Source: a candidate division LCP-89 bacterium
GTDB lineage: Bacteria; Electryoneota; B3-LCP
Direction: 5' to 3'
Length of the DNA: 64,000 nucleotides
Assembly: GCA_025774555.1 (NCBI GenBank)
Contig: JALGVT010000004.1
Coordinates: 12,013 to 76,012 of the forward strand
Shown one piece after another: positions 11,536-60,767 of this stretch. The notes under the pieces are model-generated. The model searched no databases. It worked only from the letters and a program-made list of their open reading frames with translations, and had not been told where the DNA came from. The translations under genes and the position numbers were made by a program. The first letter of the stretch is position 1, and each line of letters opens with the position of its first letter.

Positions 11536-11680
11536 GGGGCTGTCCCAAAAGTAACTTTTATAGTCATCGCGAACGAAGTGTGGCGATCCTTAAGGTTTTG
11601 TAAAACAGGAGATTGCCACGTCATCAGCCGGACGGCTGATTCCTCGCAATGACGCGATTCTATGCTTTTAGGACAGCCTC
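11536..11680. mobile_element. 145-nt MITE-like palindromic element, copy 1
   Basis: Terminal inverted repeats are GGGGCTGTCCCAAAAG ... CTTTTAGGACAGCCTC, with internal inverted halves (GTCATCGCGAACGAAGTGTGGCGATCC / GAGATTGCCACGTCAT..CCTCGCAATGAC). A paralogous copy lies at 56206-56349. Confidence 0.6.
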
Positions 11681-11684
11681 TTCT

Positions 11685-28241: not shown

Positions 28242-28937
28242 ATGGATAAAAACGTACTGAATGCGCAACTGAGATCTAACAGTGGGAAAGGGGTAGCTCA
28301 TAAGCTTCACGCCAATGGAATGCTGCCCGGTGTTTTCTACCTTGGAAATAAAGTAAATCAGCCGATCCAGCTTAACAGCCACGAGTTGCAACTGGTGTTG
28401 AAGCAAAAGCCCAGCATCATCATGTTGAAGTTAGATGATGGATCTGATTACGAATGCGTTATCCGTGATTTGCAGAAAGACCCCGTAACTGGGGATAATC
28501 TGCACATCGATTTAATGGGAATCGTACGCGGTCAGAAGATGACTGTTCAGGTTCCTGTTGAACTGGAAGGATCTGCGTATGGAGTGCGGACGCAGGGCGG
28601 CATTCTTCAACAGCTGATTCACAATATAAATGTGGAATGTCTTCCCAAACACATCCCCGAAAAGGTTGTTCTTGTCATTGATGAACTGAGTATAGGTGAT
28701 TCGCTGCGCGTCAGCGACATCGATGTTGAAAATGTCCGTATCCTCGATGATCTTGAGATGACGGTCGCTACTGTCCAGCCGCCGAGAGTCGAGATAGAGG
28801 CTGTCGAAGAGGAAGAGGTTGAAGGCGAAGAGGTTGAAGGCGAAGAGGCTGAAGGCGAAGAGGCTGAAGGCGAAGAGGCTGAAGGCGAAGAGGCTGAAGG
28901 CGGCGAAAAGAAATCCAAAAAAGAAGGCAAAGAATAG
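28242..28937 (+). CDS. ctc: 50S ribosomal protein L25 / general stress protein Ctc
   Basis: It has the L25/Ctc N- and C-domains and lies between prs and pth as in Firmicutes. The acidic tail carries EGEE(V/A) repeats. Confidence 0.9.
   Translation: MDKNVLNAQLRSNSGKGVAHKLHANGMLPGVFYLGNKVNQPIQLNSHELQLVLKQKPSIIMLKLDDGSDYECVIRDLQKDPVTGDNLHIDLMGIVRGQKMTVQVPVELEGSAYGVRTQGGILQQLIHNINVECLPKHIPEKVVLVIDELSIGDSLRVSDIDVENVRILDDLEMTVATVQPPRVEIEAVEEEEVEGEEVEGEEAEGEEAEGEEAEGEEAEGGEKKSKKEGKE
28806..28905 (+). repeat. tandem 15-nt repeat (GAAGGCGAAGAGGYT, about 6 units) inside the ctc 3' end
   Basis: The unit recurs head to tail and is read directly. It encodes (EGEEV/A)n. Confidence 0.85.
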
Positions 28938-34124: not shown

Positions 34125-34179
34125 ATGAAGGTAAGCCCAAACGCTATGATAATTTCATATTAAATTGGAGGCTTCAGCC

Positions 34180-42161: not shown

Positions 42162-42234
42162 GGTGAAGTAGCTCAGATGGGAGCGCGTCCCGACAAGGTC
42201 GGGGAGGTCACCGGTTCGAATCCGGGTTTCATCA
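42162..42234 (+). pseudogene. degenerate third tRNA-like element in the ITS (tRNA-Ala-derived? anticodon loop ACAAGGT)
   Basis: A 73-nt cloverleaf can be drawn. The acceptor is GGTGAAG/TTTCATC with two G-U pairs, and 17 nt of the T-arm region are identical to tRNA-Ala. Against a working tRNA: C at position 33, anticodon AAG, one D-stem mismatch and one T-stem mismatch. Confidence 0.5.
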
Positions 42235-42597
42235 CAAAACGATCAGGTTCAAAAGATCGTGAAAAGTTTCGGAACATCCGTTCCGAACTGTTCTTTGACA
42301 GTCGAAGTCGAGTTCGGGTAGCATAATAAAAAGAATCAGACATCTGTAAAGGTTGAAGGATTTCAGCCAAGTTATAAAGGGCACGAGGTGGATGCCTTGG
42401 CACAAGCAGGCGATGAAGGACGTGGTAAGCTGCGATAAGCCCCGGTGAGGTGCAAACAACCTTAGATCCGAGGATTTCCGAATGGGGAAACCCGGCTCCG
42501 GTAATGCGGAGTCATCACTAAGTGAATACATAGCTTAGTGAGGCGAACGGAGAGAACTGAAACATCTAAGTAACTCCAGGAAGAGAAAGCAATAGCA

Positions 42598-42638
<41 letters not shown>

Positions 42639-42903
42639 TTATGTCGTGTCAAGCTGACGGGCGTTGCGGCATAGGGGTCGTGGGATCGGTCTGGGAGAGC
42701 CGTTAATCTCCCAGGAAGTTACAAAACCATTTGTTAGTCGAGTATTCATGGAAAGGTATAGCCATAGAGGGTGATAGCCCCGTAGGCGAAAACAAATGGA
42801 CTTCCGACCGTCTCCCAAGTACCGCGGGACACGAGGAACCCTGTGGGAATTCAGGAGGACCATCTCCTAAGGCTAAATACTCGCTTGTGACCGATAGTGA
42901 ACC

Positions 42904-42934
<31 letters not shown>

Positions 42935-43529
42935 GGGAGGGGAGTGAAATAGTACCTGAAACCTCGTGCTTACAAGCAGTGGGAGTCCCGACTTGTCGGG
43001 ATGACCGCGTGCCTTTTGCATAATGAGCTGGCGAGTTGCTCGTCCGTAGCAAGGATAAGGCTCTCAGAGCCCGATCCGTAGCGAAAGCAAGTCTGAATAG
43101 GGCGATAAGTTACTGGCGGCAGACGCGAAGCCGGGTGATCTACCCATGGCCAGGTTGAAGCGCAGGTAAAACTGCGTGGAGGACCGAACCAGTTGACGTT
43201 GAAAAGTCATTGGATGAGTTGTGGGTAGGGGTGAAAGGCCAATCAAACCCGGAGATAGCTCGTACTCCCCGAAATAGCTTTAGGGCTAGCCTCGCGTGAT
43301 GTATACCGGAGGTAGAGCACTGAAAGGAATAGGGCCCTCAAAAGGGTACCGACCCCTATCAAACTCCGAATGCCGGATATATTAACGTGGGAGTCAGGCT
43401 ATGGGAGATAAGTTTCATAGCCGAGAGGGAAACAACCCAGATCGACAGCTAAGGTCCCCAAGTGTGACTTAAGTGATAAAGGATGTGAAAGGACCAAGAC
43501 AACCAGGAGGTTGGCTTAGAAGCAGCCAT

Positions 43530-43561
<32 letters not shown>

Positions 43562-44352
43562 AAGTCGTTTTGCGCCGAAAATTGTCGGGACTAAAGTCAC
43601 CACCGAAGCTTCGAGTTGTCCGTAAGGACAGCGGTAGGGGAGCATTCCGTGCACCTGCGAAGGTTATCCGTGAGGATGGCTGGAGGAGACGGAAGAGCAT
43701 ATGCCAGCATGAGTACGCGATAATGAAGGCGAGAAACCTTCACACCGAAAATCCAAGGTTTCCTGAGTAAAGCTAATCTGCTCAGGGTTAGTCGGACCCT
43801 AAGCCGAGGCCGAAGGGCGTAGGCGATGGAAAACGGGTTAAATATTCCCGTACCACCAGGAGTCTGTTTGAACTATGGGGTGACGCAGGAGTGAAAGGTC
43901 AGCCACCGATTGGAAATGGTGGTCTAAGCAGGTAGGCTGAAGGAGCAGGCAAATCCACTCCTTCTTAAGGCCGAGACGCGATAGGGAGACGTAATGTCAT
44001 AAACTGGCCCTAATCATACTGCCGAGAAAAACCTCTATGTGAGGACTTCAGGTGACCGTACCGTAAACCGACACAGGTGGATGAGGAGAGAATCCTAAGG
44101 TGCTCGAGAGAACCGTGGTTAAGGAACTCAGCAAAATGACTCCGTAACTTCGGGAGAAGGAGTGCCCTGGACGGCGATAGAGTTCGCCTCTTTAGCTGTT
44201 CGGGGCCGCAGAGAAACGGCCCAGCCGACTGTTTACTAAAAACACAGGTCTCTGCTAAGTCGTAAGACGATGTATAGGGACTGACACCTGCCCGGTGCCG
44301 GAAGGTTAAGGGGAAGTGTTATCTCCGACTTGTCGGAGAGAAGCTCTGAACT

Positions 44353-45227
<875 letters not shown>

Positions 45228-45483
45228 TCTGGGCGCTGTCTCAACCACGGACTCGGCGAAATTGAATTATCAGTGAAGATGCTGATTACCCGCAATTGGA
45301 CGGAAAGACCCCGTGCACCTTTACTATAGCTTGATATTGGATTGTAGCTCTGCATGTGTAGGATAGGTGGGAGACTTTGAACCATCCACGCCAGTGGGTG
45401 GGGAGTTACCCTTGAAATACCACCCTTGTTTTGTTGGAATCCTAACCTCATGCCGTGAATCCGGCTGAAGGACAGTGTCAGGT

Positions 45484-45515
<32 letters not shown>

Positions 45516-45673
45516 ATGTAACGGAGGCGCCCAAAGGTTCCCTCAGCACGGTCGGTAATCGTGCGTAGAGTGTAAAGGCACAAGGGAGCTTAACTGCGAG
45601 ACATACAGGTCGAGCAGGTAGGAAACTAGGGCTTAGTGATCCGGCGGTAGAGAATGGAATTGCCGTCGCTCAT

Positions 45674-45776
<103 letters not shown>

Positions 45777-45982
45777 TAGGAGGTCCCAAGGGTTTGGCTG
45801 TTCGCCAATTAAAGCGGCACGCGAGCTGGGTTTAAAACGTCGTGAGACAGTTTGGTCCCTATCCATTGTGGGCGCAGGTATCTTGAGGAGTGCTGCTCTT
45901 AGTACGAGAGGACCGGAGTGGACGAACCTCTGGTGTACCAGTTGTCGCGCCAGCGGCATGGCTGGGTAGCTAAGTTCGGAAG

Positions 45983-46015
<33 letters not shown>

Positions 46016-46312
46016 CCCTCCAAGATAAGGATACCCATTCCTGCTTCGGCAGGACTGAAGACCCCTCATAGACTATGAGGTTGATAGGTCACAGGTGTAA
46101 AGGCAGTAATGTCAAAGCCGAGTGATACTAATAGGTCGTGAGACTTGGCATAATTAATTTTTCAACTGATACAGGTTGCTGATCCGCTAACCGAACTCGA
46201 TTTCGACTGTCATAAGAACAAAAATATTGTGGAGGTCAGACATTCCTGTCTGACAGGCAAGTCCGAGGGACTCCTTCGGAGAATGCCTATCCTCCGTTTG
46301 ATATGACTGATA

Positions 46313-47145: not shown

Positions 47146-47910
47146 ATGAGCTTTTTAATCATTCCATGCTATATAAAGAATAAATGGGACCTCCATTATC
47201 TTAACAGGCTCCTCGCCAGCGTCGAGAGCCAAACCTTGACATTCGAGCAAGTCTATCTAGTAGATGATGCAAGTCCTTTGCATTATACATTGGAATTTAG
47301 CTTCATAGAGTACATCAGACTCCCAAAGAATGGCGGCCCCGCAAAGGCGCGAAACGTAGGCATTGAGAGAGCCCTTGAAAGAGATGCCCAACATCTGTTC
47401 TTCACCGACCACGACTGCATCCTCGACAGTTCCTGGAACCAGCACATGACTCATTTCCTTCAGAGTACTTCATTCGGTGCTGTTGGGGGCTTGACATTAT
47501 CCTGGGGCACCACACTGTTTGACTACTACCATGACATCAACGGCACCCTATCCGGGAAATGGCTCTTGCCGGACAGGAAAGAGCTTTGGTACATGCCGTC
47601 CTTGAACTTCGGCATGAAAGGCCAAGTCGCAAGGGAGTTCATCTTTGACGAGAGATTCCCTACCGCCGCCGGAGAAGATGTAGACCTCTGCCTTCGGATG
47701 AGGAGTAAATATAAAATCGGCTTCTGCGTCAAAGCGAAGCTCTGGCATGACTATGGTTATAAGAGCACCCTGACTGGATTTATACGATTTATAAGACTTT
47801 TTATGAAATACAAGAGCTCAAGCGCAACACTATATGAGGGCCATACGGTATTGCTATGGGACTCATCAGAATCCATCTATCTGGGAAATGCGTATGAGCC
47901 TAATCTATAG
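47146..47910 (+). CDS. family 2 glycosyltransferase
   Basis: YLVDDASP..., PKNGGPAKARNVGI and FFTDHDC (a DxD-like motif) on a GT-A fold. 254 aa. Confidence 0.8.
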   Translation: MSFLIIPCYIKNKWDLHYLNRLLASVESQTLTFEQVYLVDDASPLHYTLEFSFIEYIRLPKNGGPAKARNVGIERALERDAQHLFFTDHDCILDSSWNQHMTHFLQSTSFGAVGGLTLSWGTTLFDYYHDINGTLSGKWLLPDRKELWYMPSLNFGMKGQVAREFIFDERFPTAAGEDVDLCLRMRSKYKIGFCVKAKLWHDYGYKSTLTGFIRFIRLFMKYKSSSATLYEGHTVLLWDSSESIYLGNAYEPNL

Positions 47911-48907
47911 GAGAAAGGCGAATCAGCCAAGCCTGACTCATGTCATCCATGACTATTATGGGGAGATCATCCCATTCGCGAAGAGAATTGATCAGAAAAT
48001 TGTCGCACTCCCGCTGCTGCTCCTTAAAACCATTGAGTGGAGCATTTATCGCTGGTACAAGACGCCAATCAGACGGTTTTACGGAGTGAAAGGCAATGAG
48101 CTCATCTACATGATTACGCGCCGCTGCTGTGATAAGTGCTCAAAATGTGGCATTTGGAAGATCCCGGAGCCTGATAACCAGCACCTGCCAGTTTCTGAAT
48201 TTATCAATTGCCTTAACCAGATACATGAGAACCTGTATCAGGTGACCCTTACTGGCGGTGAGCCGCTTCTGTATCTGGAAGATGTGCTCCTTATAGGCGA
48301 AGAATGTAAGAAATTGAATGTCCCAATGCTCGTTGTCACCAATGGTGTGCTGCTCACTAAGCGTTTCCTTCAAGCATACGCCAAGCTTGAGCACATCCTC
48401 GTGATATCAGTAGATACTATAAATACAGCGAAATGGGTGAACTTTCGGGGCAGAAACCACTTCGAGCTTGTGATGGGGAATATAATGCTCGCTCGGTCTT
48501 CCCTAGGTAATAAGCTGCGGATCCAGTCCGTCCTAGCAAAAGAAACACAGGACGATATTCCACTAGTTAAGAATTTTTGCGATGAGCACTCCATCCCTCA
48601 CATTATCCAGCCCTATATGGATTTTGGAGGCTGCTGGCATAGCACCACCAGCAAAGCCAAAGACACCGGAGTCGCCTGCGCCGCACGGAAGAATATCTGC
48701 ATCTATCCCAATGGAGACGTAGTCAAGTGCTTTGACCACCATCGGATTCCTTTAGCAAAAGAACCACTCGGGAACATCAAAAAGGAGGACATCATCACGA
48801 TCCTCTGCAAGAGACGCTCAACTGAAGTGTCGAAGATCATGAAGACCTGTAACTATCCATGCAAACAATTATCATGCAACATCCCAATTGACATCTGTAA
48901 CTCATGA
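47888..48907 (+). CDS. radical SAM protein with SPASM/twitch-like C-terminal Cys-rich domain
   Basis: It has the CX3CX2C motif (CCDKCSKC) and TLTGGEPLL. The C-terminal region has C-X6-CIYPNGDVVKC and CNYPCKQLSC. The start is ambiguous (47834, 47888 or 47894), and all options overlap the GT2 gene. Confidence 0.8.
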   Translation: MRMSLIYRRKANQPSLTHVIHDYYGEIIPFAKRIDQKIVALPLLLLKTIEWSIYRWYKTPIRRFYGVKGNELIYMITRRCCDKCSKCGIWKIPEPDNQHLPVSEFINCLNQIHENLYQVTLTGGEPLLYLEDVLLIGEECKKLNVPMLVVTNGVLLTKRFLQAYAKLEHILVISVDTINTAKWVNFRGRNHFELVMGNIMLARSSLGNKLRIQSVLAKETQDDIPLVKNFCDEHSIPHIIQPYMDFGGCWHSTTSKAKDTGVACAARKNICIYPNGDVVKCFDHHRIPLAKEPLGNIKKEDIITILCKRRSTEVSKIMKTCNYPCKQLSCNIPIDICNS

Positions 48908-49485
48908 CTCGAACAAATCCAGACGTTATCATCATACGGGGTGCTCCCGGTTCAGGAAAGACACAGGCATCGAAGTGCCTTGCCACCCACTTCCAAAAGA
49001 GTGTCCGTATAGAAGTCGATACACTGAGGGCTATGGTCATTTCTGTTGAGTGGTCCAACCAGGATGAGCACATCAATATCCTATCCCTCACAATAGGTCT
49101 TGTTATCGGCTTTCACCGACTTGGTTACGGTCCGATCATTGTGGTCGATACATTCAGCGGAAATAAGCTCTCAAAGTTCATTGCAGATATCAGCTTAATG
49201 AACAACAACCTCGAAATACGTTCATTCGCGCTTGTAACCGCTCCTGAGGTCCTCAGAGTCAGGGTTGAGGACAGACCAACAGGCCAGTTCAAGGATCTCG
49301 ATATCTGCATAAAATTGAATTCCGACGTTATCAAACACCTTCAACCTCTCGAACAAATCATTGACAACACCGAACTAACGCCAGTGGAAACGGTTGAAGT
49401 CATATTGGAGCAACACCTTGGTTTTTCCAACGCCCTTCCTGCAAGAGAACGGTCAAGTTTGGGCGTTCGGGAGTTTAAAAGGTAA
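48904..49485 (+). CDS. P-loop NTPase / kinase-like protein (AAA_33-like)
   Basis: Walker A IIIRGAPGSGKT and a Walker B-like IIVVDTF are present. The ATG overlaps the rSAM stop (ATGA). Confidence 0.7.
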   Translation: MTRTNPDVIIIRGAPGSGKTQASKCLATHFQKSVRIEVDTLRAMVISVEWSNQDEHINILSLTIGLVIGFHRLGYGPIIVVDTFSGNKLSKFIADISLMNNNLEIRSFALVTAPEVLRVRVEDRPTGQFKDLDICIKLNSDVIKHLQPLEQIIDNTELTPVETVEVILEQHLGFSNALPARERSSLGVREFKR

Positions 49486-49576
49486 ATAGGTTGGTTCAGC
49501 CTAGCACAATTGTCTTTGTAGTCGAGTCCCTGTACTCGACGATTACCCCGGCGGGTGGCATGCTTTTAGTTTCCCC

Positions 49577-49694
49577 GTTGCGTTAGGTCCTTAACGCAGC
49601 ATAGACCTGACGCTAAAACGCATGTAAATAAAGATGTCAGGTCACATCCGTCAGCCGATGGATACCGAAGGCACAGGCAAGACCTGACACAACA
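49577..49694 (+). repeat. 119-nt structured palindromic repeat, copy 1
   Basis: GTTGCGTTAGGTC...GACCTGAC...GTCAGGTC...ATCCGTCAGCCGATGGAT...GACCTGACACAACA. About 90% identical to copy 2. Confidence 0.85.
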
Positions 49695-49721
49695 AATAAC
49701 TTATTCAGAAAGGAGCTTATC

Positions 49722-49859
49722 ATGGGTAAAGGCAAAGGTGGAGGTAAGAGCGGCAGCGGCGGTTCCAAAGATGAAAAATCCAATCCCCAATGGCCGAGTA
49801 AAAAAGATGGAAAGTCCTCCGGTGATAAGAGGGGAAATAATCCTCCCAAAGGCAAGTAA
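49722..49859 (+). CDS. 45-aa Lys/Gly/Ser-rich hydrophilic peptide (hypothetical)
   Basis: The ATG is preceded by AAAGGAG at a 6-nt spacing. It reads MGKGKGGGKSGSGGSKDEKSNPQWPSKKDGKSSGDKRGNNPPKGK. It is below the ORF-track cutoff, and its low complexity makes a coding call uncertain. Confidence 0.45.
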   Translation: MGKGKGGGKSGSGGSKDEKSNPQWPSKKDGKSSGDKRGNNPPKGK

Positions 49860-49894
49860 TCATGTGGTACATCTGCCCTGGAGCCAGATTTCAT

Positions 49895-50012
49895 GTTGCG
49901 TCAGCTACTTAGCGCAGCGTTGACCTGACGCTAAAACGCATGTAAATAAAGATGGCAGGTCACATCCATCAGCCGACGGATACCGAAGGTACAGGCAAGA
50001 CCTGACACAACA
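49895..50012 (+). repeat. 119-nt structured palindromic repeat, copy 2
   Basis: Same architecture and orientation as copy 1. Confidence 0.85.
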
Positions 50013-50159
50013 GTGAATGCCTTACACTGGTGCCCCATAGTTCTACTGTGGGAAAGTTATCCGAACCATGCAAACTTCTTCCACTGAACCTCGAACCCCA
50101 AATCTTCAAACCTGATGTTGTGTTAAGCCAAGTTTAATGGCTCATTCTCAAAATTACGG

Positions 50160-50188
50160 TTGATAGATGGAATATTTTAAGTTATATT
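50160..50188 (+). promoter_or_regulatory. sigma70-type promoter (TTGATA-17-TATATT) of the flavodiiron gene
   Basis: It lies 102 nt upstream of 50290 and is paralogous to 47015-47043. Confidence 0.45.
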
Positions 50189-50206
50189 AATCTCACTTTA
50201 GTAGAA

Positions 50207-50239
50207 GGGGCTGTCACAATCCCTTTTGGGACAGCCCCC
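50207..50239. repeat. mini-palindrome made of the MITE terminal repeats only
   Basis: GGGGCTGTC-ACAATCC-CTTTTGGGACAGCCCC. It has the same ends as the elements at 11536 and 56206. Confidence 0.45.
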
Positions 50240-50289
50240 ACCCAGCCATTTCAACAACAAAAACCATTACATTCAGATAAGGTATTCAC

Positions 50290-51468
50290 ATGCAAAAGAG
50301 GCAGATAAAGGAAAACATTTATTGGATGGGAGCCGTTGATTGGGACAGGCGCCTTTTTGATTCTCTCATCCCGCTTCCAGATGGCACTTCTTACAATGCC
50401 TACCTGGTTGAAGGGAGCGAGAAAACCGCTTTGTTGGACACTGTCGATCCGTCTATGTCCGATGAGTTAATGAGACAACTGGACGGGGTTTCCAGAATTG
50501 ATTTTATCATCTCTAATCATGCGGAGCAGGATCATTCAGGGACCATCCCCCGGGTTCTTGACAGGTTTCCGAAAGCGAAAGTTGTCTCGACCCCCAAGGC
50601 TAAGCAGATGCTTATTGATCTGCTCAAAATCCCCGAGAGCGCCTTCGTTACCGTGACAGACGGCGAAACGTTATCCCTTGGCGACAAGACCCTGAAGTTC
50701 ATTCATACGCCCTGGGTGCATTGGCCGGAAACCATGGTGACTTACCTGGAAGAAGATCGTATCCTCTTCAGTTGTGATTTCTATGGTTCCCATATCGCGA
50801 GCACCGATCTTTATGTGACCGATCAGGGGCGTGTGTACGAGGCGGCTAAACGCTACTATGCCGAGGTCATGATGCCCTTTCGGAGCGTTATCGCAAAAAA
50901 TATCGAGAAACTCAAGGCGTATGATCCCCAAATAATTGCTCCCAGTCACGGGCAAATCTATGATCGCCCATCATGGATCATGGAGGCTTATCGAGACTGG
51001 GTAATCGGTCCACCTAAAAACACGGTCGTATTGCCCTTTGTATCCATGCATGACAGCACCAAACAAATGGTCGATCATCTGGTGTCGGCTCTGGTGGAAA
51101 ACGGTGTTCGAGTCGAACCGTTCAATTTGGTGGTCACCGATATCGGCAAACTTGCCATGGCTCTGGTGGATGCAGGCACGGTGGTCATCGGCACTCCCTG
51201 CGTTCTGATCGGACCTCATCCTATCGCCGCTTACGCCGCATTCCTGGCGAATGCACTGCGACCCAAAACAAAATTCCTTTCCATCATCGGTTCCTATGGA
51301 TGGGGTGGGAAGACCGTGGAAACACTCGCGGGAATGATCCCCAATCTGAAAGTTGAAGTATTGGAGCCTGTTTTGTGCAAAGGGGCACCTTTGGAGGCTG
51401 ATTTTAAGGCGTTGGATGTTTTAGCCGCCGCCATTGCGGAAAAGCACAAAGAAAACGATTTCATTTAA
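50290..51468 (+). CDS. class A flavodiiron protein (metallo-beta-lactamase-like plus flavodoxin-like domains)
   Basis: The diiron motif HAEQDH lies in ...IISNHAEQDHSG... A C-terminal flavodoxin-like domain follows. 392 aa. Confidence 0.85.
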   Translation: MQKRQIKENIYWMGAVDWDRRLFDSLIPLPDGTSYNAYLVEGSEKTALLDTVDPSMSDELMRQLDGVSRIDFIISNHAEQDHSGTIPRVLDRFPKAKVVSTPKAKQMLIDLLKIPESAFVTVTDGETLSLGDKTLKFIHTPWVHWPETMVTYLEEDRILFSCDFYGSHIASTDLYVTDQGRVYEAAKRYYAEVMMPFRSVIAKNIEKLKAYDPQIIAPSHGQIYDRPSWIMEAYRDWVIGPPKNTVVLPFVSMHDSTKQMVDHLVSALVENGVRVEPFNLVVTDIGKLAMALVDAGTVVIGTPCVLIGPHPIAAYAAFLANALRPKTKFLSIIGSYGWGGKTVETLAGMIPNLKVEVLEPVLCKGAPLEADFKALDVLAAAIAEKHKENDFI

Positions 51469-51659
51469 ACGCAAGTATATACTGGGATCCAGTATTTCCT
51501 GTCAGGAACAGCTATGGAGTCTCCCGTTATGTTGTGTTCCCTTTGTTGCTGATGCTCTTCTAATATCTCAGGTGGGTGGCATGCTTCTGGATCACCGCAG
51601 GTGAGACGAAGTATGTTTTGCTATAATTAAAAGTGGTTCCTCTAAAAAGGAGATATAAA

Positions 51660-51974
51660 ATGAATCTACTAGGCGACGAAGAAGATCGGCTTCCATTTCC
51701 CACCATACCAACTGAGATCAATGGAGTAAAGATTGAAGAGTACATTATCCCTGATGAGGATAAAGCTGAGGTTTTAAAGCAACTCTATTTATCTGATCCC
51801 GTACCATCCCTCGATGAGAAAAAGTACGATCTCCATGCTGGAAAGATGTTTGTGGTTCGTGATTTCCGAGTTACCCGCGAGCATAACCGTAACTGGCTTG
51901 TAAGCCCCTATTATTATGAAGCAGGTGGCACCGTTATTGACTGGCTCCCACCCGAATTTGCTGATGACCTTTGA
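51660..51974 (+). CDS. hypothetical protein (104 aa)
   Basis: The ATG at 51660 is preceded by AAAAAGGAG and an extended -10 (TGCTATAAT). No family was recognised. Confidence 0.55.
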   Translation: MNLLGDEEDRLPFPTIPTEINGVKIEEYIIPDEDKAEVLKQLYLSDPVPSLDEKKYDLHAGKMFVVRDFRVTREHNRNWLVSPYYYEAGGTVIDWLPPEFADDL

Positions 51975-51995
51975 GTACCCAGTAGATACATTCCC

Positions 51996-52114
51996 GTTGC
52001 GTCGGGTCCTTAGTGCAACGGAGACCTGACGCCCAAAACACGCACAAATAAAGGTGTCAGGTCACATCTGTCAGCAGACGGATACCGAAGGCACAGGCAA
52101 GACCTGACACAACA
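51996..52114 (+). repeat. 119-nt structured palindromic repeat, copy 3
   Basis: GTTGCGTCGGGTC...GACCTGAC...GTCAGGTC...ATCTGTCAGCAGACGGAT...GACCTGACACAACA. Confidence 0.85.
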
Positions 52115-52167
52115 GATAACGATCCCCCTTATATTAACCACTAATCGCAATCGTACACAGTTTCCAC

Positions 52168-52196
52168 TTGACTTTAACCTTTCCTTTGGATATATT
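52168..52196 (+). promoter_or_regulatory. sigma70-type promoter (TTGACT-17-TATATT)
   Basis: Exact hexamers 76 nt upstream of the 52272 ATG. Confidence 0.45.
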
Positions 52197-52271
52197 CAGG
52201 CAATCAGGTAATCAAATCGTTTGCAGTCATCATACTATTATTGTTTTATCCATATCAAAAGGAGATATCTT

Positions 52272-52469
52272 ATGAGTGCGAAAAACCTCGGCTGGCCTTT
52301 GATCGGTTTTGCTATCGTAATAGGCATTTTGCGGTTGATGGATGTTATTGGCACCAATGTTACCGCGGTCCTGATCATGGGTGCGATCTGCGCGGTGGGC
52401 GGTATCGCAGGCGCTAATGCGGCAAAAATGAAAAAGCAGGACGAGGCTGAATCCAACGAACAACAGTGA
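52272..52469 (+). CDS. small membrane protein (65 aa, two predicted TM helices)
   Basis: The ATG at 52272 follows AAAAGGAG. It reads MSAKNLGWPLIGFAIVIGILRLMDVIGTNVTAVLIMGAICAVGGIAGANAAKMKK... Confidence 0.55.
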   Translation: MSAKNLGWPLIGFAIVIGILRLMDVIGTNVTAVLIMGAICAVGGIAGANAAKMKKQDEAESNEQQ

Positions 52470-52518
52470 ATGGCACTTCTTAACGGGAGATTGTAATTCA
52501 CACATAATAGGAGCAAAA

Positions 52519-52959
52519 ATGAGTGCCAAAACTAAGATAGGAATCATTATATGTGATCGCTACCGCCGCTGCGCAGGCGGGAAGTGCCTCCGTGCCATGA
52601 GAAACAGGGAGGGCGCTTTTGATATATATGGTGATCTGGAATTGGTCGGCTATACAACCTGTGATGGCTGTCCTGGAGGTAACATTGAATACGCCGGTGA
52701 AGAGATGGTGAAGAATGGGGCGCAGGTTATTCATCTGGCTACTGGTTTGATCGTCGGCTATCCGCCCTGTCCTTACATCAGCACATTTAAATCGTTCCTA
52801 GAATATCGCTATGGCGTTAAGGTCGTGGCGGGCACGCATCCCATACCGAAGAAATATCTGGATATGCACACGCGTTTGGGAACCTGGGAAGACCCTGCCT
52901 GGAAGCCGCTTCTCGAACCAACCATGGCTGATGATGCCACCCGCAAGGCTTATGATTAA
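52519..52959 (+). CDS. CGGC-domain protein (putative metal-binding)
   Basis: The Cys pattern ...ICDRYRRCAGGKC...TTCDGCPGG... is typical of the CGGC family. 146 aa. Confidence 0.7.
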   Translation: MSAKTKIGIIICDRYRRCAGGKCLRAMRNREGAFDIYGDLELVGYTTCDGCPGGNIEYAGEEMVKNGAQVIHLATGLIVGYPPCPYISTFKSFLEYRYGVKVVAGTHPIPKKYLDMHTRLGTWEDPAWKPLLEPTMADDATRKAYD

Positions 52960-52969
52960 GTCTATTCCT

Positions 52970-53088
52970 GTTGCGTCAGGTCTTGAGCGCAGCGGAGACC
53001 TGATGCCTAAAACACGCACAAATAAAGGTGTCAGATGATATCCGTCAGCCGACGGATACCGAAGGCACAGGCAAGGCCTGACACAACA
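52970..53088 (+). repeat. 119-nt structured palindromic repeat, copy 4 (central octamers degenerate)
   Basis: GTTGCGTCAGGTC...GACCTGAT...GTCAGATG...ATCCGTCAGCCGACGGAT...GGCCTGACACAACA. Confidence 0.85.
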
Positions 53089-53212
53089 GATAATTTGAAT
53101 CCTCCGAAGAAAATTCGGGGGCTTTTTATTTTGGAGGGACGCGTATCATCGTTTGTACAGGTACTTGTGTATTTGCAGATAAGAAAAATATTGGCAGATT
53201 TTATTAAACTGC

Positions 53213-53241
53213 TTGACTTTTAATATTTTTTTTTGTATATT
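53213..53241 (+). promoter_or_regulatory. sigma70-type promoter (TTGACT-17-TATATT)
   Basis: Exact hexamers 64 nt upstream of the 53305 ATG. Confidence 0.45.
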
Positions 53242-55049: not shown

Positions 55050-56030
55050 TTGGCTTCATTTCAGGGCGAAAACAACATCATTTATGACAACGATGCATAT
55101 TCCAATCCTGAGTATCAGGGTACCATGAACCTGCATTACTCTTGCAGTTCACAAACCTTAGCAGGGATTGGCAACACCACCAGTAATCCCCTGTTTGTAA
55201 ATTCTGCTGCAGATAATTACTATCTGCTGGCTGGTTCACCCTGCATAGATACCGGCGATCCCGGTTCTCCACTTGATCCAGATGCGACTCGAGCGGACAT
55301 GGGCGCGCTTTATTTCGATCAAAGCGGCGCGGCGCCGGATATTATCATAGAACTCACTTATGTATCCGGTTCACCCGTTCCGGCGAGCGGCGGTAATCTG
55401 TATTTCGACGTATTTGTCCAGAATGCGGGAACGACGCCGGTAGATTACGATGCCTGGCTCGAGATCGCATATGAAGGCGGTCCTCCTACAACCGTTGTGA
55501 TGCGTTCATTTGCCAACTATATGCCTGCTTGGACCATCAATCGTCCTGGTATGTTCTTCCCAATTTCCAGTTCCTATGCTGCCGGTAATTACACCTTCGG
55601 CGGGAAGGTTGGCATCAATCCGAATACCGTGTGGGATGAAAGCGGCTTCCCGTTCGTGAAATCAGGCACGGACACACGCAGCGAATTCATCCCCTGGGTG
55701 CCTGATGGCGTTCCCAATCCGTTCGATGAAATCATCACAGACAAGGAGGTTGATGGCTTGCTACCTATGGAATTCGCACTGAATACAGCCTATCCCAACC
55801 CCTTCAACCCTGCTACGACACTGGGTTTTGCATTACCTGAAGCTTCACGCGTGAAGCTGACTGTGTATGACATTTCCGGTCGTCTTGTAGCTGAAGTTGT
55901 TGATGGCTGGCATGATGCAGGCTATCATGAGGTGTCATTCAATGCCACACACCTCGCTTCCGGCGTGTACATCTACCGGATGGTGGCAGGTGATTTCACG
56001 GCAACCGGCAAGATGGTGCTGATGAAATAA
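55050..56030 (+). CDS. continuation of the beta-helix protein, with pre-CTD module and T9SS C-terminal domain
   Basis: It is in the same frame as 54204-54842. No stop occurs between 54843 and 56030, and the beta-helix repeats continue through 54843-55300. The end is YPNPFNPATTLGFALP...SGVYIYRM...KMVLMK. Confidence 0.7.
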   Translation: MASFQGENNIIYDNDAYSNPEYQGTMNLHYSCSSQTLAGIGNTTSNPLFVNSAADNYYLLAGSPCIDTGDPGSPLDPDATRADMGALYFDQSGAAPDIIIELTYVSGSPVPASGGNLYFDVFVQNAGTTPVDYDAWLEIAYEGGPPTTVVMRSFANYMPAWTINRPGMFFPISSSYAAGNYTFGGKVGINPNTVWDESGFPFVKSGTDTRSEFIPWVPDGVPNPFDEIITDKEVDGLLPMEFALNTAYPNPFNPATTLGFALPEASRVKLTVYDISGRLVAEVVDGWHDAGYHEVSFNATHLASGVYIYRMVAGDFTATGKMVLMK

Positions 56031-56071
56031 AACGCAGAGTGTGTCATCCCGGACTTGATCCGGGATCCAGT

Positions 56072-56098
56072 AAGGGCGCACGGTGGTGCGCCCTTTTC
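56072..56098 (+). terminator. intrinsic terminator / REP-like hairpin
   Basis: AGGGCGCAC-GGTG-GTGCGCCCT followed by TTTT. Confidence 0.55.
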
Positions 56099-56169
56099 AT
56101 TATTGTCATTCCTGCGAAGGAGGTCTGAAGGTCCATAGGACTCCCACGAAGAATCCTACGGGGAATCCA

Positions 56170-56196
56170 GTAGGGGCGAGGTTACCTCGCCCCTAC
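56170..56196. repeat. REP-like GTAG...CTAC hairpin
   Basis: GTAGGGGCGAGGTTACCTCGCCCCTAC. Confidence 0.6.
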
Positions 56197-56205
56197 AATT
56201 ACATT

Positions 56206-56349
56206 GGGGCTATCCCAAAAGTCTATATGCTGTCATAACGAATGAAGTGTGGTGATCCATAAGAAACTGTATAATATGAGATTGCCACGTCATGCGTCAA
56301 TTGACGGATTCCTCGCAATGACTTAAATGCTTTGTTTTGGAACAGCCTC
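56206..56349. mobile_element. 144-nt MITE-like palindromic element, copy 2
   Basis: GGGGCTATCCCAAAAG...GTCATAACGAATGAAGTGTGGTGATCC...GAGATTGCCACGTCAT...CCTCGCAATGAC...TTTTGGAACAGCCTC. It is collinear with 11536-11680. Confidence 0.6.
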
Positions 56350-56429
56350 TTTTATTGAAACAGAAACCATTCGAATTTCTGTTACTTGAGAAGTGCCAGC
56401 TTACCTTGCGCCTTATAATTATCTGCTTC

Positions 56430-56510: not shown

Positions 56511-56550
56511 AAACTTTCAAATTGCCATTCCTGCGCAGGCAGGAATCCAG

Positions 56551-56581
56551 AGGGCGCACGTCTGTGCGCCCCCTTTTTTTT
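56551..56581 (+). terminator. intrinsic terminator / REP-like hairpin
   Basis: AGGGCGCAC-GTCT-GTGCGCCC followed by CCTTTTTTTT. Confidence 0.5.
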
Positions 56582-56696: not shown

Positions 56697-59600
56697 ATGA
56701 AGAAACTTCTCTGCATACTTTTCCTGAACCTGATCCTCGCGACTGTTTCGCATTCTGTAGAATGGGTATCCTTAACAGACAATCCAGAGCCGCTCAATGT
56801 CGAAGTACTCGAAACGGACGGTAATCGCACCGTAATTGACTACCAGGTGAACGGCTACCGAACTGATGAAATATTCATCGAGGGACAGAGCTACACCGTT
56901 TTGCAGAGCCTTCCTCGAGAAAGTATGATCGAGGAGCCGGGATTTCCCCGCCTGCCCCGCATCAACCGCTCCCTGCGAATCCCCGATGACGGGATCATGG
57001 GCTTCGAGATCATTTCTGCTGACTATATCGAGGTCACTGATATAGACATCGCTCCCTCCAAAGGACACCTGCTCCGTTCTATCGATCCTGCAACCATCCC
57101 TTATACTTTTGCTGATGTCTATCAGCAGGATGCCTTCTATCCGGGTGACATCGTCAACGTACAAAGGCCGTACATCCTGCGAGATTATCGCGGTGTGGTC
57201 GTTGAACTGAATGCTTTTCAGTATAATCCTGTTTCCCGAGTTCTAAGGATATACACTGATATTACGATAGAAGTGAAGAAGACCGCGTCCGGCGGAGGGA
57301 ATACACTGGTACGTAATCGATCCTTGACCAGGATCGATCCCCAGTTCAGGAAGATCTACCAGCGGCGTTTTTTAAACCAGTCTGCCCTGGATTATCCTTT
57401 CCTGGAGGAATCCGGGGACATGCTGATTATCTGCTACGATGATTTTATGGGTGAAATGTCCGATTTTGTCGATTGGAAGGTTCAGCGCGGTATCCCGACT
57501 GAACTGGTGCCTGCTTCGGAAGCAGGGAGTACTCCCGGGCAGATAAAAAGCTACATTCTAGATTATTATAATACCCATGATTTATGCTATGTGCTGTTTG
57601 TCGGTGATGCTGCTCAGATTCCTACGTTTTCAAGAGATTTGAATTCCGATCCCATCTATTCTCAGTTGGCAGGCAGTGACAGCTACCCTGATATATTCGT
57701 CGGGAGGTTCTCCGCTGAAAACGTTGACCAGGTTGCCACCCAGGTGCAGAGGACGATTGACTACGAAAGATACCCCGATCCATCTGGCAGTTGGTATGAA
57801 GAGGGACTTGGCATTGCCAGCACCGAAGGTCCTTTTCCTGAGCATTATGGCGAATATGATTACACCCACATAACCAACATCGCCTATAAACTGCTGGATC
57901 ATACATATACCCAGGTTGACAGCGCTTACGATCCCTGGTGCACGATGGAAATGGCTGTTGACTTTATCAATGAAGGTAGAAGTATTATATCCTATACAGG
58001 GCATGGCGGCCCCGAGGGCTGGGGGACATCGGGCATATCCACAGCGGAAGTGGATGGGTTTGTAAACAGCAACATGCTTCCGCACGTGAACAGCGTCGCC
58101 TGCAATACGGGTCAGTTCATGGAATATACCTGCCTCGGTGAAGCCTTCCTGCGCGCCACCCACGAGACAACAGGTGAACCCACAGGAGGAATCGGTTTCT
58201 ATGGATCAGTAGAGGGGATGACCGGAGCGCCTCCGCTGGATATGCAGGATGAAGCGATAGATGTGCTCGTTGCCGATTCGATGCTGACCCTGGGAGGGAT
58301 CTATTTCAGCGGTTCAATGCTGATGATGGATAACTACCCTTACCCCGATGTGGGACCGTGGGAATTCTCCAATCTGACCATCTTCGGTGACCCGTCTGTT
58401 AGTCTGCGTGGTGGTGTCCCTTATTCACCGCTGGTATCACACAATCCGGAAGTCCCGGTCGGGACTAATGCTCTTAATGTTACTGTTGTTTCGCCATATG
58501 GTGCAGTGAACGGAGCGATGGTTTGCGGCATGAATCAAGACGTCTATGCTACGGCGGTGACCAACGCTTCAGGACAGGCCACCTTAACCTTCGATCCCCC
58601 GGTCACCGGTACCGGGACTTTAACGTTGACCGTATCTGGTGGCGATATGATTCCCTACGTGGTCGATTTAGACATCATCGATCCTTCTGCTGCATATGTT
58701 ATCTATGAAGATCATACCGTTCAGGATGACCTCACCGGTAACGGCAACGGTCAATTAGAGTTCTACGAAACAGTCGAACTGGGCATCACATTTCAAAACG
58801 ATGGCGCCTCTGCCGGTAATAATATCAGCGGCACCATCACGTCCGATAATCCACTGGTAACCATCAGCAGGGATTCCGTCTGGATAGGCACTATTGCCGC
58901 CGGTTCGTCAACCACTGTTGACCGTGCATTTGAAATCAGCCTGAATCCCGAAATCGAGGATTTAGAACCCGTTACTTTCCTCCTTATCACCACAAACGGC
59001 ATAGATAGCTGGGAATCCAATTTCAGCGTGATTGTACACGCCCCCGATATCGTGTTCTCCGAATTGCTTATTGACGATTCTTCCGGCGGTAACGGAGACA
59101 GTCTCTTAGCCCCGGGTGAAACCGCGGACCTTATCATTAAACTGGGGAATGCAGGATCTTATATTGGCGAAAACATCGAAGCTGTTCTAACCTGTGAAAA
59201 TACACAGGTAGTTATCAATAGCGGCACGATCAATTGCGGTGATATGCTGGCAGGAACGGAAACACGAATCACCTTCAATATCACCGTAGAACCAGATTTT
59301 TATCCCCCGGGAAGTTTCCCCGAATTCACGATCACTATTACTGGGGATCATGGTTATACCAATGAGACAGGTTTCTCAACTACCATTGGCAACGCCAATT
59401 CAATGCCCACCGGTCCCGATAATTACGGCTACATGGCTTACGATCAGAACGATTATCCATTCTTCGTGCAGTACGACTGGATAGAACTGGTCCCGGATTC
59501 CGGCGGTGTGGGCAATCGTGTCCCCTTCACAAATATCGATCAGGTTCATCACCTGGCATTACCATTCGACTTCCAGTATTACGGCATTACTTATGACAGT

Positions 59601-60767
59601 TTGACCGTTACCACTCCGGGACACATCTGTATGGGTGTGACAAATGAGATCGACTACACTTCATCTTCCATCCCTGATCCCGATGGTCCCCCGGCGATGG
59701 TTAGCGCCATCTGGGGTGATTTGGACCCGGCAGGGGCAACTGTCGGAGGGGATGCCGGCGGTGTCTGGTATCAATACAGTCAAACCAGTCATTATTTTGT
59801 GATAGAGTACAATTACGTGCCCTGGTATGCTCTTGCCTACGATGGTCATGCAACCTATGAAATTATCCTGTATGATCCTGAATTCTATCCAACTTCAACC
59901 GGTGATGGTCAGATAAAATTCCAGTTCAAGGAGTTCGAGAGTTGGGGGCCGACTGGAATTGAAAATCACGATGAGGACGACGGAATCCTCTATCGCAATG
60001 GAAACATTTACCCCGGCACCGCGGCGACGCTGGAAGATCGGACCGCCATCCTCTTTTCCACGCCGGTCACCATCCCGGACGTGACGATCACGATGACGCC
60101 TACTGTTACGCCGATTACGATTCCCGGTTCTGGCGGTGACTTCGATTTCAATGTAGCGTTGGCGAATAATGAATCCACCTCGCTCGCTTTCAGCACCTGG
60201 ATCATGGTACAGCTGCCGAATTTGAACTGGTACGGCCCCTTATTAGGCCCGGTAGACCTTTCGCTGCCAGCCGGGTATACCCTGGACCGTGACCGAACTC
60301 AGACTGTTCCCGGCAGCGCGCCTGAAGGCACTTATACCTATGAAGGTCGAGTTGGTACCTATCCCAACTTCATCTGGGATAGCGACAGCTTCACCTTCGA
60401 AAAGCTCGCATCGGGAGATGATACCGAGATTGGGGATTGGTTCAACAGCGGCGAATCTTTCGACCAGTGGCTGATATCCAACACGGACGAAGTAGCTATC
60501 CCACTAACATCTTCATTAGATCAGAACTACCCCAATCCTTTCAATCCCACGACAGTGCTCAGTTATCAGTTGTCAGTGGTTAGTAATGTTAACCTAACGG
60601 TTTACGACATACAGGGCAGGCTTGTCGCCGAACTAGTCAACGGCTGGCGGGACGCAGGTTACCATGAGGTGACGTTCGATGCCTCACACCTTGCTTCCGG
60701 CGTGTATATCTATCGGATACAGGCAGGCGACTTCAACGCCATCAGCAAAATGGTGCTGATGAAATAG
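56697..60767 (+). CDS. gingipain-like peptidase C25 family protein with T9SS C-terminal domain (1356 aa)
   Basis: It has a signal peptide and a C25 propeptide/catalytic region. The candidate His is in ISYTGHGGPEGWG and the candidate Cys is in VNSVACNTGQF. Several Ig/CARDB-like modules and the pre-CTD module follow, then YPNPFNPTTVLSYQL...SGVYIYRI...KMVLMK. Confidence 0.8.
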   Translation: MKKLLCILFLNLILATVSHSVEWVSLTDNPEPLNVEVLETDGNRTVIDYQVNGYRTDEIFIEGQSYTVLQSLPRESMIEEPGFPRLPRINRSLRIPDDGIMGFEIISADYIEVTDIDIAPSKGHLLRSIDPATIPYTFADVYQQDAFYPGDIVNVQRPYILRDYRGVVVELNAFQYNPVSRVLRIYTDITIEVKKTASGGGNTLVRNRSLTRIDPQFRKIYQRRFLNQSALDYPFLEESGDMLIICYDDFMGEMSDFVDWKVQRGIPTELVPASEAGSTPGQIKSYILDYYNTHDLCYVLFVGDAAQIPTFSRDLNSDPIYSQLAGSDSYPDIFVGRFSAENVDQVATQVQRTIDYERYPDPSGSWYEEGLGIASTEGPFPEHYGEYDYTHITNIAYKLLDHTYTQVDSAYDPWCTMEMAVDFINEGRSIISYTGHGGPEGWGTSGISTAEVDGFVNSNMLPHVNSVACNTGQFMEYTCLGEAFLRATHETTGEPTGGIGFYGSVEGMTGAPPLDMQDEAIDVLVADSMLTLGGIYFSGSMLMMDNYPYPDVGPWEFSNLTIFGDPSVSLRGGVPYSPLVSHNPEVPVGTNALNVTVVSPYGAVNGAMVCGMNQDVYATAVTNASGQATLTFDPPVTGTGTLTLTVSGGDMIPYVVDLDIIDPSAAYVIYEDHTVQDDLTGNGNGQLEFYETVELGITFQNDGASAGNNISGTITSDNPLVTISRDSVWIGTIAAGSSTTVDRAFEISLNPEIEDLEPVTFLLITTNGIDSWESNFSVIVHAPDIVFSELLIDDSSGGNGDSLLAPGETADLIIKLGNAGSYIGENIEAVLTCENTQVVINSGTINCGDMLAGTETRITFNITVEPDFYPPGSFPEFTITITGDHGYTNETGFSTTIGNANSMPTGPDNYGYMAYDQNDYPFFVQYDWIELVPDSGGVGNRVPFTNIDQVHHLALPFDFQYYGITYDSLTVTTPGHICMGVTNEIDYTSSSIPDPDGPPAMVSAIWGDLDPAGATVGGDAGGVWYQYSQTSHYFVIEYNYVPWYALAYDGHATYEIILYDPEFYPTSTGDGQIKFQFKEFESWGPTGIENHDEDDGILYRNGNIYPGTAATLEDRTAILFSTPVTIPDVTITMTPTVTPITIPGSGGDFDFNVALANNESTSLAFSTWIMVQLPNLNWYGPLLGPVDLSLPAGYTLDRDRTQTVPGSAPEGTYTYEGRVGTYPNFIWDSDSFTFEKLASGDDTEIGDWFNSGESFDQWLISNTDEVAIPLTSSLDQNYPNPFNPTTVLSYQLSVVSNVNLTVYDIQGRLVAELVNGWRDAGYHEVTFDASHLASGVYIYRIQAGDFNAISKMVLMK

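Follow-up and report, generated by a model that had tools for sequence, protein, structure and literature searches.

Repetitive extragenic palindromes (REPs) and their inverted doublets (REPINs) are well known from Escherichia coli and Pseudomonas, where they are linked to a REP-associated tyrosine transposase (RAYT). The foot of a canonical REP is GT[AG]G, and REPs with other feet have been described for RAYT subclasses 2.6 and 3 (PMC6006769). Here, we analyze four elements of about 119 nt in a 64,000-nt stretch ("the window", in the coordinates of which features are given) from a candidate division LCP-89 bacterium (GenBank assembly GCA_025774555.1, contig JALGVT010000004.1, positions 12,013 to 76,012). 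A preliminary description of this DNA had reported a structured palindromic repeat of the class to which REPs and enterobacterial repetitive intergenic consensus (ERIC) sequences belong, had left its kind unassigned and had likened its layout to an integron cassette array. The class was right, and the kind can now be named. The elements are very probably REPIN-like inverted doublets of a REP family that extends across at least 46 genomes of the FCB group (Fibrobacteres, Chlorobi, Bacteroidetes), in some of which the units are linked to a RAYT gene. What had been described as "cassette-like" is best interpreted as a variable region in which successive transcription units have REP doublets at their 3' ends.

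Anatomy and fold of the four doublets

Repeat finding and alignment confirmed four direct, intergenic copies on the + strand, at 49577-49694, 49895-50012, 51996-52114 and 52970-53088 (found as repeat family D1 at 49570-49699, 49888-50017, 51990-52119 and 52964-53093). Their mean column identity in a MAFFT alignment is 87%. Copies 1/2 (91.5%) and 3/4 (89.1%) form two closer pairs, as had been proposed, compared to 82-85% across pairs, and about 6 nt of each flank are also alike in all four copies. The conserved 3' 34-mer of the copies has four occurrences with at most one mismatch, against 0.00 expected from 100 shuffles. The octamer GTCAGGTC, which had been noted for its alternating orientation, occurs together with its complement 11 times in the window (1.4 expected), nine of these being within the copies. 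The terminal inverted repeats (GTTGCGTCAGGTC / GACCTGACACAAC, with one C.A mismatch) and the ATCCGTC-AGCC-GACGGAT hairpin of the preliminary description are also present. With filters off, a search of the window with a covariance model of the four copies (R1) found only the known four. A supposed decayed fifth copy (51498-51550) aligns no better than shuffled sequence and is detected neither by R1 nor by the model R2 described below. The base composition of the repeat region shows no anomaly. The 13-mer GGGTGGCATGCTT occurs exactly twice in the window, as had been reported (49553-49565 and 51574-51586).

Each copy consists of a unit A, a spacer of 20-21 nt and a unit B. Unit A reads GTT + GCGTCAGGTC + 14 nt + GACCTGACGC. 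Unit B reads (G/A)TGTCAGGTC + ACA + inner hairpin (TCCGTC-AGCC-GACGGA) + 15 nt + CAA + GACCTGACAC + AAC, which in short form is GTGTCAGGTC-ACA-[hairpin]-CAA-GACCTGACAC-AAC. Because the arms and the foot of unit A are the reverse complement of those of unit B, the element is an inverted doublet and not one long palindrome. The outer stem of a unit has 10 bp (GYGNCAGGTC / GACCTGNCRC) and is joined by a conserved 3x3 internal loop (ACA / CAA) to an inner hairpin. The latter is variable, with 6-8 bp, and is reduced to 14 nt in unit A of the window subfamily. A single-stranded foot completes the unit; it is AAC at the 3' end and, in the inverted unit, GTT at the 5' end, so that the whole doublet reads GTTG...CAAC.

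All four doublets are read on the + strand. Doublet 1 (49577-49693, 117 nt) has unit A at 49577-49613, the spacer at 49614-49633 and unit B at 49634-49693. Doublet 2 (49895-50011, 117 nt; unit A 49895-49931, unit B 49952-50011) is the most decayed, and changes in its arms (GCTA and GGCAGG) weaken the pairing. Doublet 3 (51996-52113, 118 nt; unit A 51996-52032, unit B 52054-52113) is the best preserved. Doublet 4 (52970-53087) is also 118 nt long (unit A 52970-53006, unit B 53028-53087).

The anatomy bears on the proposed likeness to an integron, according to which the repeats would be attC sites at the 3' ends of gene cassettes. A length of about 119 nt and an imperfect palindrome do resemble the long attC sites of chromosomal integrons. 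An attC site has R'' (RYYYAAC) at its 5' end and R' (GTTRRRY) at its 3' end. Either strand of the elements reads GTTGYGT...RCRCAAC, which is the opposite order.

The + strand folds of copies 1 to 4 have z-scores of -4.8, -2.3, -7.7 and -6.0 compared to shuffles. The preliminary description was correct in that mutually exclusive pairings are possible: in the window copies, a side-by-side fold (AL:AR, nine Watson-Crick pairs and one G-U pair) and a nested fold (AL:BR, eight and one) are near-equal. A nested fold, with arm 1 pairing with arm 4 and arm 2 with arm 3, was obtained by RNAalifold from the four copies. It was dropped for two side-by-side hairpins, since the arms of each unit covary independently in relatives. 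Among the four copies alone, no base pair is changed on both sides, and the changes that had been called compensatory are single wobble changes. The GTTGC/GCAGC hairpin, also proposed from these copies, is not the pairing of the wider family, in which GCGTCAGGTC pairs with GACCTGACGC.

The family and its transposase in relatives

A CGGC-domain protein with 98% identity to that encoded in the window led to a contig from another genome (L004; L numbers denote such contigs and loci). On L004, co-directional small genes are set apart by repeat pieces, which are unit B alone, unit A alone, or either of them joined to a second palindrome with the ends GACGGGTGGCC...GGCCACCCGTC. The latter is interleaved with REP pieces at 1499-1590, 2030-2095, 4170-4260 and 5065-5110 of L004, and the 13-mers GGGTGGCATGCTT of the window may be remnants of this second palindrome family. 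GGGTGG/CCACCC hairpins adjoin units in L043, L061 and L087.

The pieces common to the window and L004 were used to define a family pattern, TGTCAGGTCACA-N20-50-GACCTGACAYAAC. This unit-B pattern has at least 119 matches in at least 46 species-level assemblies; it is exact and thus undercounts. The 119 listed loci (each at most 8 kb), from species-representative genomes, are our sample of relatives. Most are labeled Zixibacteria, "FCB group", "uncultured Ignavibacteria(les)" or plain "bacterium". The matches are found on both strands. They are spread over many contigs of a genome and recur far apart on individual contigs; in single assemblies (e.g., CAVTJJ01, CAYURP01, CAZLBP01, CBDUQR01), up to about 10 or more widely separated 8-kb blocks contain them. 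In contrast to the sites of an integron cassette array, single units are seen on either strand and between convergent genes, scattered over many unlinked places of a genome. The exact 21-mer at the 3' end of the window copies has no match in the species-representative genomes, and its sole match in metagenomes of the Joint Genome Institute (L001), on eukaryote-like AT-rich DNA, was rejected as chance. As this 21-mer is all but missing, the subfamily to which the window copies belong must be rare in, or missing from, both collections.

A typical element of the family reads GTTG-CGGCAGGTC-TTG-[hairpin]-TGT-GACCTGCCG-C, followed by about 21 nt and G-TGTCAGGTC-ACA-[hairpin]-CAA-GACCTGACA-CAAC. A fuzzy scan of the 119 loci found 219 units. 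Doublets have their feet outward (A then B) in 51 cases, inward in one case, and two pairs are direct. The spacer is most often 21 nt and the doublet most often 119 nt long (16 of 51), compared to 20-21 nt and 117-118 nt in the window. Of 50 doublets from relatives, 45 have GTTG...CAAC ends, as have all four window copies, so the foot is GTTG and not the canonical GT[AG]G. A strict scan leaves 111 apparent single units, which is an overestimate because degenerate partners go undetected, as is the case in the window. In several relatives (among them L036, L038, L055, L094 and L028, the latter from the Zixibacteria metagenome-assembled genome (MAG) JAJRPJ01), the doublet lies inside a longer palindrome (GGGCTTGTTGATAAA...TTTATCAACAAGCCC; GGGCTTGTTGATAAAnCCC ... 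GGGnTTTATCAACAAGCCC).

Membership of the window copies was established with a second covariance model (R2), which was built with a two-helix structure from 56 units of other genomes only. It matches exactly eight half-units in the window, four units B on the + strand and four units A on the - strand, while the rest of the 64 kb is devoid of matches below E = 0.5. Unit B, comprising the outer stem, the ACA/CAA loop, the inner hairpin and the AAC tail, is matched in doublets 1 to 4 at 49631-49696 (E = 4.6e-12), 49949-50014 (E = 1.6e-8), 52051-52116 (E = 1.5e-14) and 53025-53090 (E = 2.1e-4). The inverted unit A is matched at 49574-49616 (E = 8.4e-5), 49892-49934 (E = 2.3e-3), 51993-52035 (E = 1.3e-4) and 52967-53009 (E = 1.5e-5). 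The model also matches the L004 pieces.

In 56 units of equal length from other genomes, each of the seven inner-helix pairs shows changes in both partners. The inner-helix covariation is 0.317 (119 cells), compared to 0.080 in shuffles (reached by none of 500) and 0.02-0.06 when the partners are slid. Pairing over the 56 units is 98.6% for the outer and 89.3% for the inner stem; the outer arms are invariant in this set only because the search pattern fixed them. In the doublets of relatives, each unit has compensated variants of its own in its arms (GGCAGG:CCTGCC, CAGTTC:GAACTG). All 51 doublets therefore pair better side by side than nested, with 9.6 and 9.7 versus 7.8 and 8.0 Watson-Crick pairs out of 10.

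Gene context was analyzed for 105 elements of the 119 loci that have a gene on either side, using crude open reading frame (ORF) calls. The elements lie between unidirectional genes in 65 cases, convergent genes in 33 and divergent genes in seven, against a baseline of 423, 119 and 100 for all intergenic spaces of these loci; divergent spaces are thus avoided. This distribution matches that described for REPs by Di Nocera et al. (PMC3733652).

A sequence of E. coli RayT was used as a tblastn probe to obtain leads only, and matches were then verified by domain models. An ORF for a Y1 (HUH) transposase was found in 17 of the 119 loci. These ORFs match Pfam Y1_Tnp, and the four tested against NCBIfam NF047646 ("REP-associated tyrosine transposase") all score above the cut-off of 80 bits (90-117 bits). 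Proteins of the main RAYT clade have about 160 aa and share the motifs MGLRF.QK..CFFVTTT ... [ST]HIHLL ... IWMPRYDRV ... YIHxNPV. A unit is located 8-150 nt from the main-clade gene in ten loci (L114, L095, L021, L047, L108, L073, L107, L088, L056, L042), and units flank the gene on both sides in L107, L042 and L056. A unit-flanked gene is the "REPtron" layout that has been described for RAYTs (PMC6006769), and the flanked gene is not that of an integrase. RAYTs have a frequency of about 1.3-1.8 copies per replicon (PMC5581495). We thus estimate that a random block of at most 8 kb from a 3-5 Mb genome holds one in well under 1% of cases, while the observed share of loci is 14%.

A second Y1/RAYT-like type has the motifs EHVH / NHVH and YCHNNPV / YIHDNPV and scores up to 117 bits with NF047646. 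It is encoded at L034 3537-4031, L110 5224-5772, L119 2316-2846, L128 4406-4888 and L069 1583-2119, at distances of 0.07-1.8 kb from family units (1-2 kb for the EHVH ... YCHNNPV type in L034, L110, L119 and L128). The second type might be a paralog, or its substrate might be a different REP family.

The preliminary description had opposed its proposal to a generic repeat that is scattered genome-wide, with neither significant covariation nor a partner enzyme. The family is indeed scattered genome-wide in relatives, in the manner of REPs, but its covariation is significant and a partner enzyme exists in relatives.

Gene neighborhood and the variable region

The four copies start 91, 35, 21 and 10 nt past the stop codons of co-directional ORFs, which end at 49485, 49859, 51974 and 52959. 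These code for a P-loop kinase-like protein (193 aa), a 45-aa Lys/Gly-rich peptide, a 104-aa protein without family assignment, and the CGGC-domain protein. The 45-aa ORF (49722-49859, between doublets 1 and 2; Lys/Gly/Ser-rich) has a strong ribosome-binding site and no family match, and may be a real gene. In three of the spaces that separate a doublet from the gene after it, a good promoter-like site with 10 of 12 matches is present (50160-50188, 52168-52196 and 53213-53241). A classical terminator-like hairpin with a T run lies 3' of doublet 4 (53101-53131). Such promoters and terminators are overall not more frequent than in shuffles, so that the individual sites are only noted. From the sites after the doublets and the terminator after doublet 4, the doublets are placed at the 3' ends of transcription units. 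In an integron-like array, neither promoter-like sites in three of the spaces after repeats nor a unit that holds two genes would be expected.

The region is variable. Between the window and L004, only the 104-aa gene (81.5% at the nucleotide level), the CGGC gene (90.6%) and the right flank from about 60.5 kb can be aligned, and the homology of the CGGC gene stops exactly at its stop codon. Homologs of the CGGC gene with 89% identity (L005-L010) are found in unrelated contexts without the repeat. The array is also dense. The densest loci in relatives have five units in 5.5 kb (L051) or two doublets each (L102, L118).

It might be speculated that the doublets mark the ends of modules that are gained, lost or swapped, forming an integron-like cassette system that is driven by an HUH transposase. 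For such an exchange, a RAYT would excise and insert, as a single strand, the DNA between two doublets, or the doublets would recombine with each other. This proposal derives from three observations: the window and L004 share only the 104-aa and CGGC genes amid different small co-directional genes, homology ends at gene ends beside the hairpins, and no locus seen in relatives has an array as dense and as uniformly oriented as that in the window. REP clusters at few loci and mosaic intergenic regions have, however, already been described (PMC3733652), and we consider such an exchange improbable. Only the dense local array within a variable region is unusual. It leaves the doublets a small probability of being involved in gene-module exchange.

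Upstream of the array, a triad of genes for a family-2 glycosyltransferase, a radical SAM/SPASM enzyme and the P-loop kinase-like protein follows directly 3' of the rRNA operon (47146-49485). The same arrangement is found on two unrelated short contigs (L002, 244-2509; L003, 1553-3712; 74-78% at the nucleotide level), where other genes come next and the repeat is absent. Homologs of the radical SAM protein with 65-69% identity are named from Methanoperedens, Anaeromyxobacter and Bacteroidales. This suggests that the three genes may be a horizontally moving module.

The window has a second palindromic family of about 120 nt (GTCATCGCGAA...GATTGCCACGTCAT[hairpin]GGATTCCTCGCAATGAC), with two copies (11563-11682 and 56232-56351) that are 73% identical. 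Both lie downstream of genes whose products have a type IX secretion sorting tail, at a distance of a few hundred nt. The central hairpin (CGTCA..TGACGGATTCC) has a faint likeness to the inner hairpin of unit B. Further short GC-rich palindromes occur at 11197-11228, 56030-56200 and 56520-56575. Some of these have a canonical GTAG foot (ATGTAGGGGCGCACGG/CCGTGCGCCCCTACAT; GTAGGGGCGAGGT/ACCTCGCCCCTAC), and motifs of the form GTCATTCCTGCG...CAGGAATCCAG are seen. Judged from these sequences, the source genome seems to carry several REP-like families.

Several other features of the window should be mentioned. The 23S rRNA gene (42365-46152) has 3788 nt compared to 2925 positions of the model, with an insertion at about 44500-45100. 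The gene includes a stretch that resembles a group I intron (RF00028 at 44773-45062, 43.7 bits and thus below the gathering threshold of 50, E = 4.7e-9) and an ORF (44514-45008) that codes for a LAGLIDADG homing-endonuclease domain (E = 1.4e-17). The spacer between the 16S and 23S rRNA genes has a third tRNA gene after tRNA-Ile and tRNA-Ala, for tRNA-Leu with anticodon AAG (42162-42235), with a low Rfam score of 31.7 bits, just above threshold. The 3' part of the gene for ribosomal protein L25/TL5 contains seven tandem 15-nt units (GAAGGCGAAGAGGCT, 28791-28925), which encode a Glu/Gly/Ala-rich tail. Two tandem paralogous genes (35822-37660 and 37741-39588), with 73-85% nucleotide identity over several blocks, end with a type IX secretion sorting domain, as do several other genes (34165-35739, 55050-56030 and 56697-60767). 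The conserved C-terminal coding stretch of these genes accounts for the repeat families D2, D6 and D9.

Mechanism, alternatives and known systems

If the elements are REPIN-like doublets, a RAYT would recognize the folded hairpin and the foot in single-stranded DNA. It would cut and rejoin at the hairpin, copying doublets to new places without target duplication. This mechanism is proposed by analogy to the E. coli RAYT-REP complex and to IS200/IS605 transposases (PMC3479197, PMC6006769). Copies would survive mainly just 3' of genes, where they would be harmless, and in the window, four successive transcription units would each have received a doublet of one lineage-specific subfamily at the 3' end. 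Once transcribed, the hairpins would likely protect or end the upstream mRNA. Being homologous and dispersed, the doublets could also promote rearrangement of the region. The preliminary description had considered a recombination site among other options, which was a good guess in the sense of a transposase site.

Several points weigh against REPIN-like doublets. The cognate enzyme and the high copy number are known from relatives and not from the source genome, and no RAYT gene was found in the 64-kb window. The window host belongs to candidate division LCP-89, while most family matches are labeled Zixibacteria. Its RpoA is closest to that of candidate division LCP-89 bacterium B3_LCP (87% identity), and Calditrichaeota and KSB1 follow as the next named matches at about 67%. 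The foot is GTTG rather than GT[AG]G; since REPs without the canonical foot exist, this excludes the canonical GTAG superfamily but not the REP kind. Unit A of the window subfamily has lost its inner hairpin. With four doublets in one orientation within 3.5 kb, the array exceeds each of the 119 loci from relatives in density, and because about 6 nt of the flanks are conserved, local duplication or recombination may have contributed beside transposition. Finally, mobilization by a RAYT is argued from analogy.

Alternatively, the repeats could be selected at the RNA level, as a structured RNA that acts in cis (a stabilizer in the 3' untranslated region, a processing site or a terminator) or as a small RNA. 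All copies are on the sense strand, 10-91 nt past stop codons and 5' of the next promoter-like site. Their predicted folds are strong (z down to -7.7) and the inner helix covaries. It is also known that REPs, when transcribed, influence mRNA stability and termination (PMC3733652, PMC3479197). We nevertheless consider this unlikely. In relatives, single units between co-directional genes have no strand preference (19:19 and 7:4), which indicates that the primary constraint is on DNA and not on one RNA strand. Units are also found directly upstream of the RAYT gene, and copy 4 is followed by a separate classical terminator 13 nt downstream. No existing Rfam model matches the window copies (neither at the gathering threshold nor at E up to 10), and none matches the repeats in the 17 loci of relatives that were scanned. 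The fixed inverted-doublet architecture and the transposase linkage would also be left unexplained. An RNA role is plausible only as a by-product.

The copies might also stem from local segmental duplication or recombination only, devoid of dedicated mobility or function. This would fit with the two closer pairs of copies, with the shared flanks of about 6 nt and with the lack of other copies in 64 kb. However, the stretches between the copies are unrelated to each other in sequence, and the architecture, length and spacer recur at unrelated places in dozens of genomes, which makes such an origin very unlikely.

Hardly credible is an ordinary miniature inverted-repeat transposable element (MITE), a deletion derivative of a DDE-type insertion sequence that is moved via the 13-nt terminal inverted repeats. 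It would account for a size of about 119 nt with such ends. It would also fit with the doublets that lie inside a longer palindrome in some relatives, the outer repeat of which presumably resembles IS903/IS5-type inverted repeats. But the "terminal repeats" are arms of two separate, independently covarying hairpins, half-elements are common (the 111 of the strict scan), the linked gene codes for a Y1/HUH transposase, and no DDE transposase was found in the window. In 50 doublets, direct repeats of 2-8 nt at the flanks are no more frequent than by chance. The lack of target duplication and the separability of the units lead us to reject a DDE-type MITE. Di Nocera et al. noted REP dimers that are inserted in long palindromes, to which the arrangement in relatives is similar.

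An integron-like cassette array, or an attC cluster without integrase, is the least likely explanation: the repeats do lie directly 3' of co-directional, functionally unrelated small genes, and in the near relative L004, related hairpins split co-directional small genes, only two of which are common to the window, with homology ending at gene ends, but we reject it because of the motif order (GTT...AAC instead of AAC...GTT), the lack of a tyrosine recombinase in 64 kb, the genome-wide dispersal of single units on both strands and the linked HUH transposase. About 50 window ORFs contain no integrase, transposase, other recombinase or Phage_integrase domain; as arrays without integrase exist, this absence alone is not decisive.

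REPIN-like doublets are not a new kind of genetic system. The REP kind is well known; what is new is a family with a GTTG foot, a two-part hairpin and hosts from candidate phyla. Full-text searches retrieved no literature linking RAYT or REP with Zixibacteria, and a search for the sequence motif retrieved nothing relevant. The assignment provides a name and a likely mechanism for an abundant unannotated repeat of poorly known FCB-group phyla (LCP-89, Zixibacteria) and extends clear REP-RAYT pairs to candidate phyla. It should prevent confusion with integrons, small RNAs and spurious ORFs in MAG annotation. With its conserved 3x3 internal loop and freely covarying inner stem, the family is a useful natural data set for RAYT substrate recognition.

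Among known systems, the attC sites of integrons (e.g., the Vibrio cholerae repeats) are likewise imperfect palindromes of about 60-130 nt that follow co-directional unrelated small genes, act as folded single strands and keep their structure despite a variable sequence. They differ in the order of their end motifs, and the integrase association of attC is replaced here by an HUH transposase and by single copies dispersed on both strands. The ERIC sequences (also called IRU, intergenic repeat units) and the bacterial interspersed mosaic elements (BIMEs) of enterobacteria are likewise intergenic palindromes of about 120 nt that are often transcribed at the 3' ends of genes. In BIMEs, inverted REPs form mosaics, and L004 similarly has mosaics of unit A, unit B and a second palindrome. 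The host range differs, and no sequence relationship to the window element was found. We know of no dedicated transposase for ERIC.

RAYT subclass 2.6 (Quentin et al. 2018; Group 5 of Bertels et al.) is mostly from Bacteroidetes and has "atypical" REPs (PMC6006769). It shares with the RAYTs described here the FCB hosts, a tyrosine motif of the type YIH[QN]NP (here YIHxNPV), a length of about 160-180 aa and flanking structures without a GT[AG]G foot. In contrast, the HUH motif is [ST]HIH here and NH[LIV]H in the subclass, and it is followed by W-M rather than W-Q. Based on these motifs, assignment of the relatives' RAYT to subclass 2.6 is a lead only.

The closest overall likeness is to the REP/REPIN-RAYT systems of E. 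coli and Pseudomonas (PMC2817692, PMC3116915, PMC3479197, PMC5581495). These likewise have imperfect palindromes with a conserved unpaired foot, inverted pairs with a short spacer, and a transposase gene flanked by its own units. They are likewise dispersed between genes, mainly 3' of genes and rarely between divergent ones, and lack target duplication. The elements described here differ by their GTTG foot, by a longer unit (46-60 nt) and by its two-part structure, with an outer stem, an ACA/CAA internal loop and a variable inner hairpin. Their hosts are candidate phyla of the FCB group, and copy number and RAYT are known from relatives.

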